Positions 13,872 to 16,490 of a stretch of DNA of 64,000 nucleotides are shown in pieces. A program made the position numbers and the translations under genes. The DNA comes from Klebsiella phage fENko-Kae01: sequence record OR228459.1. One strand, given 5' to 3'. The notes under the pieces are model-generated. The model worked only from the letters and a program-made list of their open reading frames with translations. It had not been told where the DNA came from and did no database searches. Position 1 is the stretch's first letter; the number at the start of each line of letters is the position of its first letter.

Positions 13872-16490
13872 ATGAGTGGTCAAGGATTTGAACATGAAGA
13901 TTATTCCAAACTGAAGAAACCCGGAAAGCAGATTGAATACACTCCCGAAATGTTAGATGAACTAGATCGGTGTTCTGTTGATCCAATTTACTTCATGGAA
14001 AACTATGTATACATTACAGGTAAGAACGGCCCAATTCTTTTTAAGCCTTATGAATATCAAAAAGAAATGGTACGTAACTTCCAAGAGCATAAAAACAACG
14101 TTATGCTTACTGCCCGTCAGATGGGTAAAGCTCTTTCAAATGACACCCCTATTTTAACTCCGAATGGTTTCACTACTATGGGTGAACTTAAAGTTGGTGA
14201 TACTATATTTGATGCAAATGGACAAAAAACAAAAATTACATATATTACTGAAACTATGTACAATAAAAAAATGTATAATATTAAGTTTAGTAATGGTGAA
14301 ATAATTACCGCATGTGAAGATCATTTATGGAACATTAGTACATCAGATTGGCAACGATATGGGAATAAAGTACGTACTTTTAGTACTAAAGATATGATTC
14401 CATTATTTGAACAGTTGCATTCTAGAAGTAAACCTAGTCGTATATTCATTGAACATACAAAAACTATAGAATTTGATCATCAAGATATAACTATAAATCC
14501 TTATATATTGGGGTTATGGTTAGGAGATGGTCAAAGTGCTAATAATAGAATAACTCATCATAAAGATGATTATGATTTTTATAAATCCATTTTGAATGAA
14601 GATATAGGTGATTTTACACTAGATAAAAGAACAGAGAAAACTGGTTATAGTAAATTAAATTTTGAACATAATTATGATTTAAAAAATAATAAGCATATAC
14701 CTGAAGAATATATTTTTAATACAAAAGAAATACGTTTAGAATTACTTAAAGGTTTGATGGATACTGATGGATATTGTTCAAAGGATGGAAATACCCAACA
14801 ATTTTATTCGGTAGATAAAAAAATATGTGAGCAAGTACAATTACTTTTATCAACACTCGGAATTAAAAATACATTATCATTTAAAGATAATGAATTTAAC
14901 GGATGTTATGTGATCACATTCAGTACTGATGTTGAAGTTTTTAAATTGCCTAAAAAATTAGAACGCCAACAACGTAGAAAACATAATCATTTAAAAAACA
15001 CTAGAATTTATATTGAAAGCATTGAAGAAGTAGAAAGTGTTCCATGTCGATGTTTACAAGTTGATAATAAAGAACATTTATTTTTATGCGGAAAATCGTT
15101 AATACCAACACATAATACAACAGTTGCGGCTGCCTATATTTTGTGGTATGCTATGTTCCACGAAAACAAAACAATTCTTCTATTAGGTAACATTGAAGAA
15201 ACTGCAAAAGAGATCATGGAACGTATTCAGTTCTCATATGAAATGTGTCCTGATCATATTCGTGATGGTGTTATTCGTTACAACGTTAAATCTATTCGTT
15301 TCGAAAACAAATCTCGTATTATTGCGAAAGCAACAACTCCTGCATCTGCACGTGGTCTATCTGTTCACTTACTATACCTTGATGAATTTGCATTCGTACA
15401 GGAAAGTTATCAATCAGAATTCTGGTCAGCGGTATCACCAACTCTAGCGAGTACTAATGGTCGATGTATTATTACCAGTACTCCAAACACCGAGTATGAC
15501 CAATTCGCAACAATCTGGACAGAATCTCAGAACTTTGTTAATGAGTACGGTGATGTACTTGATGATGATGGCCCCGGATCAAACGACTTTAAAGGTATGA
15601 TGGTTACTTGGGATAAACATCCAGACCGTGATATTGAGTGGGCTAAGAAAGAAGAATATAAAATTGGTTCTTCTAAATTTAAGCGTGAGTTTAACTGTGA
15701 GTTCGTAACTTACCAAGAAACTCTTATTGATTCAGTTAAACTAACTGAAATTAAGAAAAGAACTGTTCGTGAACCAATCCGTAAAACTGATGAAGTACGT
15801 TGGTTTAAACCTATTGAATATGGAATGACATATGTCGTTGCACATGACCCATCATCAGGTACTGGTGGTGACGATGCGGCAATTCAGGTTTATGAACTAC
15901 CTACAATGCGTCATGTTGCAGAATGGAAACATAATAAGATGATCATTCCTGAGCAAGTACGTTTACTTCGCAGAATACTAAATGAGTTAGCTTATCAAAT
16001 GCAAGAACTTGGTGCACGTAATATTGAAGATCACTTGTTCTGGACTTTTGAAGGTAACTCAATTGGTGAAGCCGTTATCATTGAACTAAATAATCTAGGA
16101 ATTGAGAATTTCCCCGGTACATTAATTAATGAACCAAAAAGAACAAGAACTGGTCGTGTACGTAAAGGTTTAACTACGACTCGTAAGACTAAAGGTACTG
16201 CATGTCTCCAGATGCAAAAACTAATGGAAACATTCAGAATGGAAGTTGCCAGTAAAGAACTTCATAGACAGCTTAACGACTTTATTAAAAGTGGTTCAGA
16301 GGATGGTGTATTCAAAGCCAAAATTGGTTGTCATGACGACTTGGTGAGTGCTTCATTGCTTATTGTTCGCATGATGCATATTATTTCCCGCTGGGATGAT
16401 AGTACTGCTGATGTTATGGGGGAAACATTAGAAGAGGCTGATGATGCATTTTATCAACCACTTGGATACCTAATGTCATATACTCGATAA
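13872..16490 (+). CDS. terminase large subunit (T4 gp17-like) interrupted by an intein
   Basis: Walker A is split as RQMGK | intein | TTVAAAY. The downstream ATPase and nuclease regions are gp17-like ([15 protein letters not shown]). Confidence 0.9.
14130..15116 (+). mobile_element. intein with LAGLIDADG endonuclease domain in the terminase P-loop; Ala1 with W/C/T signature (class-3-like)
   Basis: Starts [10 protein letters not shown] (Ala1). LAGLIDADG-like [10 protein letters not shown] and [13 protein letters not shown]. Block F has VPCRCLQVD (Cys at the F:4 position). Ends IPTHN with T+1. Confidence 0.7.

Follow-up and report, generated by a model that had tools for sequence, protein, structure and literature searches.

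A probable class 3 intein with a LAGLIDADG endonuclease domain in the large terminase gene of Klebsiella phage fENko-Kae01

The terminase gene and its insert

The stretch analysed here, referred to below as the window, comprises 64,000 nt of Klebsiella phage fENko-Kae01 (sequence record OR228459.1). It includes an open reading frame (ORF) for a large terminase subunit (TerL) of the T4 gp17 type, which is interrupted by an insert, very probably a functional intein of class 3 that includes a LAGLIDADG homing endonuclease. The product of this ORF was identical to WNV47407.1, deposited as 'hypothetical protein ENKO_304' of the same phage. Pfam recognised Terminase_6N at residues 416-613 of the 872-aa product and, just under cut-off, a weaker Terminase_6C match at residues 657-830, both located downstream of the insert. 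Coordinates of all features are compiled in Table 1.

The insert is a precise in-frame addition of 987 nt within the Walker A motif, between its Lys and Thr residues (GK/T). An earlier note on this DNA, made from the sequence alone, had placed at 14130-15116 a 329-aa insert splitting a gp17-like Walker A motif into RQMGK and TTVAAAY. This proved exact, both by translation (329 codons with C-terminal end SLIPTHN, flanked by TARQMGK and TTVAAAY) and by comparison with the intein-less Salmonella phage PHA46, which reads CAGATGGGTAAA/ACAACAGTTGCG (RQMGK/TTVAA) at the junction. Both boundaries are thus fixed, since PHA46 carries the uninterrupted site. No mismatch to PHA46 was encountered across 335 nt upstream and 1073 nt downstream of the junction, the insert flanks as a whole were 99.8% identical at the nucleotide level, and removal of the 329 codons left a protein 100% identical to PHA46 TerL. 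Flanks of phages SE_PL, 7t3 and Munch, which like PHA46 lack the insert, were ~98% identical. An uninterrupted RQMGK/TTVAA was found in the TerL proteins of PHA46, Munch, SE_PL, 7t3, 121Q and Hallingskeid. The interrupted sequence is equivalent to SRQLGK/T, the Walker A motif of T4 type, as present in the T4-like phage ECD7, which carried a related intein at the same place. The GC content of the insert was 26.8%, versus 37% in the exteins, with a minimum in its central domain.

Table 1. Coordinates of the TerL gene of fENko-Kae01, its predicted intein and the flanking tract (positions in the window)
Feature	Coordinates	Strand	Remarks
TerL precursor ORF	13872..16490	+	872 aa, 543 aa after predicted splicing; identified by Pfam and protein identity
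N-extein	13872..14129	+	86 aa, identical (100%) to PHA46 TerL N-terminus
Walker A residues RQMGK closing the N-extein	14115..14129	+	Lys-1 is the P-loop lysine
Predicted class 3 intein	14130..15116	+	329 aa, HINT interrupted by LAGLIDADG endonuclease
Block A, position 1	14130..14132	+	Ala (GCT), non-nucleophile; Lys in EJP2, Leu in K64-1
Block B, CEDHLW	14313..14330	+	Cys62 (B:7), His65 (B:10), Trp67 (B:12)
Predicted LAGLIDADG homing endonuclease domain	14445..14999	+	intein residues ~106-290; GC minimum 23-25%
LAGLIDADG motif 1, LGLWLGD133GQS	14508..14537	+	Asp133 at 14526..14528
LAGLIDADG motif 2, LLKGLMDTD213GYCS	14742..14780	+	Asp213 at 14766..14768
Block F start, VPCRCLQVD	15039..15065	+	Cys308 (15051..15053) at F:4, proposed initiating nucleophile; Asp312 at F:9
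Block G, IPTHN	15102..15116	+	Thr327 (G:5), His328, Asn329 (predicted cyclising residue)
C-extein	15117..16490	+	Thr+1 at 15117..15119 is the Walker A GK-T threonine, proposed second nucleophile
Co-conversion-like tract, upstream part	13928..14129	+	13 SNPs (single-nucleotide polymorphisms) in 202 nt relative to Munch, SE_PL and 7t3
Co-conversion-like tract, downstream part	15117..15183	+	6 SNPs in 67 nt, of which 5 lie no more than 18 nt from the junction

Class 3 signature of the splicing domain

The class 3 definition applied here was that of Tori et al. 2010, together with Kelley et al. 2016 and 2018. In these inteins position 1 is non-nucleophilic, B:12 is a Trp lying two residues past the His of B:10, F:4 is Cys, G:5 is Thr, and Thr or Ser follows at +1 (PMC2807308); Trp, Cys and Thr form the so-called WCT triplet. 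All five features (position 1, Trp B:12, Cys F:4, Thr G:5 and Thr+1) were displayed by the insert.

Their placement was obtained from inteins of known structure. When all chains of the PDB were searched with the insert by phmmer, the DnaB-1 intein of Mycobacterium chimaera came first (6rix and 6riy, E 2e-22 and 1e-21), and DnaB intein 1 of M. smegmatis (Msm DnaBi1, 6bs8) was matched with E 2e-20, well beyond what chance would give. The latter entry is entitled 'The class 3 DnaB intein from Mycobacterium smegmatis'. The HMMER alignment blocks, covering blocks A-B and F-G, were gapless and paired query residues 1-68 with chain residues 1-68, and 293-329 with 103-139. Catalytic residues described in 6bs8 are Trp67, Cys118, Thr137, Asp62, His65, His138 and Asn139 (PMC6195587). 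Residues W67, C308, T327, H328 and N329 of the insert aligned onto Trp67, Cys118, Thr137, His138 and Asn139, and its His65-Leu66-Trp67 onto His65-Gln66-Trp67. An alignment to class 3 inteins had been proposed in the earlier note as a check of its class assignment; as run against the solved ones, it put Cys308 and Thr327 at WCT positions and all defining residues at homologous positions.

The same arrangement was found in the DnaB intein of mycobacteriophage Bethlehem (MP-Be DnaB), for which residues His65, Trp67, Cys320, Asp324, His328, Phe330, Thr339, His340 and Asn341 were reported (PMC2807308). The corresponding series in the insert was His65, Trp67, Cys308, Asp312, His316, Phe318, Thr327, His328 and Asn329, and the offsets from Cys308 (+4, +8, +10, +19, +20 and +21) equalled those from Cys320.

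Conservation was assessed on 62 aligned sequences, namely the query and 61 metagenomic or genomic homologues collected by a protein search with the intein (all matches of at most 575 aa); TerL proteins of RaK2-like phages are not part of this set and were gathered by tblastn on the phage collection. Trp67 was found in all 62 sequences, Thr327 in 60, and Cys308 and Asn329 in 59 each. Position 1 was non-nucleophilic in 61 sequences and occupied by Ala in 53, while Lys preceded the intein in 60 and Ser or Thr followed it in 52. As Ala, Lys or Leu is found there among orthologous inteins of jumbo-phage TerL proteins, position 1 is not constrained to a nucleophile.

These counts also corrected the residue assignment in part. 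The Trp initially taken for the block B signature residue, in TSDWQ (Trp74), was displayed by only five of the 62 sequences, and the true B:12 residue is Trp67 of CEDHLW, on which Trp67 of Msm DnaBi1 aligns. A block F Cys had rightly been recognised in VPCRCLQVD; it is the second Cys, however, which occupies F:4, the first one (Cys306) being kept in three sequences only. The Ala at position 1, encoded by GCT here and in the other copies, and the Thr preceding the terminal His-Asn, followed by Thr+1, stood as described.

Endonuclease domain

The two LAGLIDADG motifs reported earlier were recovered: Pfam detected LAGLIDADG_3 (E=1e-10) and Hom_end (E=1.7e-5) inside the insert, both above threshold, and each motif kept its terminal acidic residue, as expected for a pseudo-dimer fold with two motifs (alpha-beta-beta-alpha-beta-beta-alpha). 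Residues G132, D133, G134, D211, D213 and G214, as well as K188, I190, P191 and Y194 of the NKHIP block, were invariant or at least 90% conserved in the alignment. Ratios of nonsynonymous to synonymous substitutions (dN/dS, Nei-Gojobori) in this domain were 0.09 between fENko-Kae01 and EJP2 and 0.14 between UE-S1 and JNE01, with synonymous sites near saturation; such values indicate purifying selection. Judged by its motif set, the central domain appears to be an intact LAGLIDADG endonuclease, and it would be expected to cleave DNA.

Predicted structure

An AlphaFold2 model of the insert, built on a 59-sequence alignment, reached a mean predicted local distance difference test (pLDDT) value of 96.0 and a predicted template modelling score (pTM) of 0.93. 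When the whole chain was compared with the PDB by Foldseek, inteins of the PI-SceI/VMA1 type came first (E 1e-17, TM-score ~0.73-0.75, query-normalised). Class 3 DnaB inteins covered the splicing domain (TM-score 0.81-0.88, target-normalised) and I-DmoI covered the central domain. On account of these matches, the modelled architecture is that of a HINT domain (residues ~1-105 and 291-329) split by a two-motif LAGLIDADG endonuclease. PI-SceI, the yeast VMA1 intein, shares this architecture and was the best structural match over the whole chain, but it is a class 1 intein (Cys1, Cys+1) with an extra DNA-recognition region and only 13% identity.

Relatives and known systems

A tblastn search with the intein gave matches in 1069 phage records, 606 of which covered at least 80% of it. 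The nearest ones occupied the same TerL site in RaK2-like jumbo phages: EJP2 was 69.6% identical, and RaK2, UE-S1, JNE01, ph0011, K64-1 and relatives displayed TerL inteins with 53-58% identity. More distant matches were found in TerL of Synechococcus phages B3 and B23 (43%), T4-like Krischvirus phages (e.g. ECD7), Vibrio phages and Rhodobacter phages, and many actinobacteriophage TerL and Cas4/RecB genes showed ~30% identity.

The RaK2-like inteins (RaK2, K64-1, EJP2, UE-S1, JNE01 and others) are orthologous to that of fENko-Kae01, with an identical RQMGK/TT site and the same endonuclease architecture, at overall amino-acid identities of 55-70%. Motifs CEDHLW, RCLQVD and IPTHN/TT were kept in all RaK2-like copies. 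Buttimer et al. 2017 (PMC5259590) had already noted Hint and LAGLIDADG domains in the RaK2 and K64-1 large terminases. The splicing domain of fENko-Kae01 was nearest to RaK2 (81% in its N-part and 85% in its C-part), whereas its endonuclease was nearest to EJP2 (71%, versus 45% to RaK2), so that the relationship to these inteins is, by sequence comparison, apparently mosaic. Between RaK2 and K64-1, the synonymous distance (dS) was 0.29 in the endonuclease and 0.74 in the splicing domain, the reverse of the pattern between fENko-Kae01 and RaK2. Repeated recombination at the level of domains among RaK2-like TerL inteins is suggested.

Both solved mycobacterial DnaB inteins (Msm DnaBi1, 6BS8, and M. 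chimaera DnaB-1, 6RIX/6RIY) have in common with the insert Ala1, His65, Trp67, the F:4 Cys and a Thr-His-Asn end; they are likewise inserted after the P-loop Lys and followed by Ser or Thr at +1. They differ in being mini-inteins without endonuclease, in their bacterial helicase extein and in the Asp at B:7 (DxxH), where fENko-Kae01 has Cys (CxxH). The regulatory Cys48 of DnaBi1 is replaced by Met48. The class 3 prototype MP-Be DnaB (PMC2807308), which was compared via its published residue numbers, is of similar size (341 versus 329 aa) and displays the same His65 and Trp67 numbering, the same spacing from F:4 to Asn, Thr+1 and a phage extein of the helicase/ATPase type. It differs by its Pro at position 1, its Ser at B:7 and its extein, which is DnaB instead of TerL.

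Class 3 inteins have been described from DnaB, RecG, SNF2 and the large subunit of phage terminases, where most of them interrupt the ATPase P-loop (PMC2807308). Class 3 and class 1 inteins were found at several TerL sites by Kelley et al. 2016 (PMC5050341), including the 'classic' K/T P-loop site; TerL inteins at five of those sites spliced in a reporter and two had endonuclease activity. A survey of 2025 counted 287 class 3 inteins in actinobacteriophages (bioRxiv 10.1101/2025.01.02.630785). TerL inteins of actinobacteriophages (PMC5050341; bioRxiv 10.1101/2025.01.02.630785) also associate the class 3 WCT triplet with a LAGLIDADG endonuclease in the TerL ATPase domain; their exteins belong mostly to the terminase_1 family, in contrast to the T4-type terminase_6 extein found here, and their hosts differ.

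Metagenomic relatives were located after GK in other proteins as well, including annotated dCTP deaminase, PhoH, DnaB and FtsK-like proteins. About 20 metagenomic proteins with dCTP-deaminase Pfam domains, most of them so named at source, harboured a related class 3 intein (Ala1, WCT, HN), preceded by EGK and followed by SSL, in an extein that is neither terminase nor helicase. This set includes P0033, P0041, P0043-P0045, P0049-P0056, P0062-P0064 and P0066.

Polymorphism and flanking tract

The allele with the TerL intein was also present on four contigs (L010-L013), of which one is an NCBI Salmonella enterica assembly and three are Logan assemblies of sequencing runs. Across fENko-Kae01 and these contigs, inteins differed by 1-2 nt in 987, while flanks differed from the window by up to ~1.2% upstream; near-identical inteins were found in at least three flank backgrounds. 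The intein was present in fENko-Kae01 and the four contigs, and absent from PHA46, Munch, SE_PL and 7t3. The SNP pattern in the flanks of L010 was that of intein-less PHA46, so that both form a near-isogenic pair with and without the intein.

When compared with intein-less Munch, SE_PL and 7t3, the intein-bearing copies displayed 19 differences, nearly all synonymous, within -202 to +66 nt of the junction. Divergence in this tract was 6-9%, whereas the adjoining segments (-258 to -205 and +70 to +365) were identical; the gene (1632 nt) had 29 differences altogether, 19 of which fell within 269 nt (binomial P = 5e-9). Over its first 18 nt, the C-extein read ACAACAGTTGCGGCTGCC in the type of the intein-bearing copies and PHA46 and ACTACTGTTGCAGCAGCA in the Munch type, with five differences. 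No co-conversion tract was found against PHA46, the tract emerging only against Munch, SE_PL and 7t3. No matching donor was encountered among EJP2, RaK2, UE-S1, JNE01, K64-1, 121Q and Hallingskeid (69-76% identity in the tract), and several alleles were unique.

The pattern looks like that expected from co-conversion during homing from a moderately diverged donor. Recent homing of the TerL intein is suggested, because the intein is polymorphic among near-identical phages, its copies differ by at most 2 of 987 nt and it lies in a tract of clustered, nearly all synonymous changes.

In the intergenic region upstream of TerL (13738..13871), the window and PHA46 differed by a 1-nt indel near 13794, and SNPs were densely clustered at 13745..13841 in the comparison with Munch and with contigs L011 and L012. 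The annotation of the equivalent region in Munch gives a terminator and a ribosome-binding site.

Points against and alternative explanations

Several observations weigh against a functional class 3 intein with an active endonuclease. The Pfam models Hint_2, PT-HINT and Intein_splicing all remained under their gathering thresholds on the ORF. The insert scored over the cut-off of NCBIfam TIGR01445 (intein_Nterm), and detection was decided by this model together with the PDB sequence search, Pfam alone being a weak detector here. Block B reads CxxH, with Cys62 at B:7, instead of the DxxH listed by Kelley et al. 2018; Asp was displayed by 51 of the 62 aligned sequences, and an important role has been proposed for Asp62 of Msm DnaBi1 (PMC6195587). 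Since the prototype MP-Be DnaB has a dispensable Ser62 at B:7 (PMC2807308), Cys62 was treated as lineage variation and not as exclusion from class 3.

The remaining points concern mobility. The four proteins of the 90% identity cluster differed only in the endonuclease domain (Q135H, K207N and R282S), and Gln135, beside the catalytic Asp133-Gly134, was private to fENko-Kae01, the other copies displaying His. As the differences fall in that domain, including the private His135Gln, the endonuclease of this copy could be weakened. Intein-less PHA46 moreover carries the same 19-change tract relative to Munch, SE_PL and 7t3. As it shares the tract without the intein, the tract cannot simply be equated with one homing event; either precise loss of the intein, a pre-existing recombinant tract or a mixed stock could account for PHA46.

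From these points arises the alternative that splicing is intact and the endonuclease is decayed or inactive, the element being inherited vertically or moved by ordinary recombination. The confinement of the cluster differences to the endonuclease and the residue at 135 speak for it, and the PHA46 tract implies recombination without homing in the region. Against it, both catalytic Asp residues and the conserved residues of block D are intact, the domain was modelled with high confidence, and the low dN/dS values hold between orthologues, among which position 135 is variable (H, N, D, Y). Near-identical inteins in several flank backgrounds and a tract centred on the junction point in the same direction. 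On balance, decay of the endonuclease was considered unlikely, though still to be reckoned with.

A class 2 (KlbA-like) route, by which Thr+1 would attack the Lys86-Ala1 bond directly and Cys308 would have a structural or assisting role, appeared very improbable. Ala1 is also found in class 2 inteins, but these lack the WCT triplet (PMC2807308), which is complete here and nearly invariant in the family. Among inteins of known structure, its nearest relatives belong to class 3, and the MP-Be DnaB prototype cannot splice at all without its F:4 Cys (PMC2807308).

Still less can be said for a dead, non-splicing insert inactivating one TerL copy while another terminase packages the genome, or for an assembly artefact. 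No specific support for either emerged, beyond the fact that the window represents 64 kb of a ~360-kb genome. The frame is open over 872 codons with all splicing residues intact, the same allele was found on contigs from further independent samples, related jumbo phages displayed a single TerL match per genome, and the phage is viable and lytic; we regard this reading as scarcely tenable.

Finally, an ordinary class 1 intein in which a sequencing error at codon 87 hides a Cys or Ser, the case that the earlier note had named as fatal to its reading, has a negligible chance of being correct: a change from GCT to TGT or TGC needs two substitutions, the codon was unchanged in the four contigs from separate samples, homologues P0002-P0004 display the same Ala, orthologues have Ala, Lys or Leu, and Ala is found in 53 of the 62 aligned sequences. 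A sequencing error at the Ala1 codon was excluded on these grounds.

Proposed splicing and homing

It is therefore retained as highly probable that the TerL Walker A motif of fENko-Kae01 harbours a functional intein of class 3, equipped with a LAGLIDADG homing endonuclease. Protein splicing is inferred from class 3 homology, from the viability of the phage and from the position in an essential Walker A motif. fENko-Kae01 is a viable lytic isolate (PMC11218385), which implies that functional TerL is made, if this is the only packaging ATPase. As the precursor has an interrupted P-loop, and as the phage presumably cannot do without TerL, splicing would be obligatory for DNA packaging.

According to the class 3 pathway (PMC2807308, PMC5050341, PMC6195587), the HINT domain would fold after translation and the thiol of Cys308, aided by His65 and Trp67 of block B, would attack the Lys86-Ala1 bond. 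The N-extein would thereby be taken onto Cys308 as a thioester, forming a first branched intermediate, and then be passed to the hydroxyl of Thr+1, forming a second one. Cyclisation of Asn329 would free the intein, and an O-to-N acyl shift would rebuild the GKT P-loop, yielding an active TerL of 543 aa. During mixed infection, the released intein or the precursor would cut intein-less TerL in the CAGATGGGTAAA/ACAACAGTTGCG region, and repair from the intein-bearing allele would copy the intein along with some flanking extein.

In the RaK2-like TerL inteins, Cys62 takes the place of the usual Asp at B:7, and in the fENko-Kae01 copy Cys306 and Cys320 lie close in sequence to Cys308. It is conceivable, although doubtful, that Cys62, Cys306 and Cys320 together with Cys308 may give rise to a disulfide or a zinc site. 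This speculation derives from the residue pattern and from a parallel with the mycobacterial class 3 DnaB intein, which has a Cys48-Cys118 redox trap and is inhibited by zinc. If true, redox or metal conditions in the infected cell would control terminase maturation and thereby genome packaging of the jumbo phage.

Other mobile elements and variable regions

A second insert was found at 8239..9192, inside ORF 8005..9582 (+), which encodes a 525-aa metallophosphoesterase (Pfam Metallophos and LAGLIDADG_3). It comprises 318 aa and is absent from PHA46, where the protein is 207 aa long and reads PGNH/CTEYIP. The insert runs PGNH/CISPDTEVLTQNGW...GKVSITGN/CTEYIP, within the GNH(D/E) metallophosphatase motif, and displays the LAGLIDADG-like motifs LLQFVIADGC and WINAIHDSDGY and a penultimate Gly instead of His. 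By its sequence (Cys1, Cys+1) it looks like a class 1 intein.

A segment of ~978 bp at 20732..21709 was absent from PHA46 and from the L010-L012 contigs (L013 ends earlier). It overlaps ORF 20807..21760 (+), whose 317-aa product displays three zinc-ribbon-like repeats (CPKCTG...KLTT.EFI; Pfam DUF4379 treble-clef just under cut-off) and a C-terminus, FDFYIP...IEYDGIQH, similar by eye to nucleases of the Vsr/DUF559 type. It resembles a free-standing homing endonuclease gene, situated between a 153-aa ORF and an exonuclease gene of the RNase_T family.

The three mobile elements assorted independently among near-identical phages, PHA46 having none of them. The TerL intein was present in all four contigs and the phosphoesterase intein only in L010 and L013, while the endonuclease-like ORF was absent from the three contigs reaching that position (L010-L012).

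A tail-fibre region of ~724 bp (2156..2879, covering the end of ORF 901..2496 and ORF 2513..3055) had no counterpart in PHA46. The fibre ORF was 531 aa long, versus 420 aa in PHA46, and precedes an ORF of 180 aa whose product displays a Caudo_TAP domain for tail-fibre assembly. A swapped cassette of fibre tip and chaperone is suggested, possibly linked to the host Klebsiella aerogenes. No tRNA genes were found in the 64,000-nt window.

Significance

This type of intein was already described, and the finding is real but ordinary. The novelty implied by the earlier note was overstated: class 3 inteins in the terminase P-loop have been known since 2010 (PMC2807308) and the RaK2 and K64-1 orthologues since 2017 (PMC5259590). 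In the literature searched, neither an assignment of RaK2-like TerL inteins to class 3 nor a mention of the fENko-Kae01 copy was found, and the paper describing the phage (PMC11218385) mentions no intein, terminase or homing endonuclease. Present understanding of inteins is unchanged by this copy.

As to annotation, which is where the main value lies, the deposited name 'hypothetical protein' should be replaced by 'terminase large subunit, intein-containing'. The range of class 3 inteins, recorded chiefly from actinobacteria and actinobacteriophages, is widened to a clade of jumbo phages that infect enterobacteria. Protein engineering may also profit from a compact intein of this class that uses Thr+1. 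Finally, the cultivable near-isogenic pair (fENko-Kae01 or an L010-type phage versus PHA46), together with target variants of the Munch type, constitutes a natural system for homing and co-conversion.

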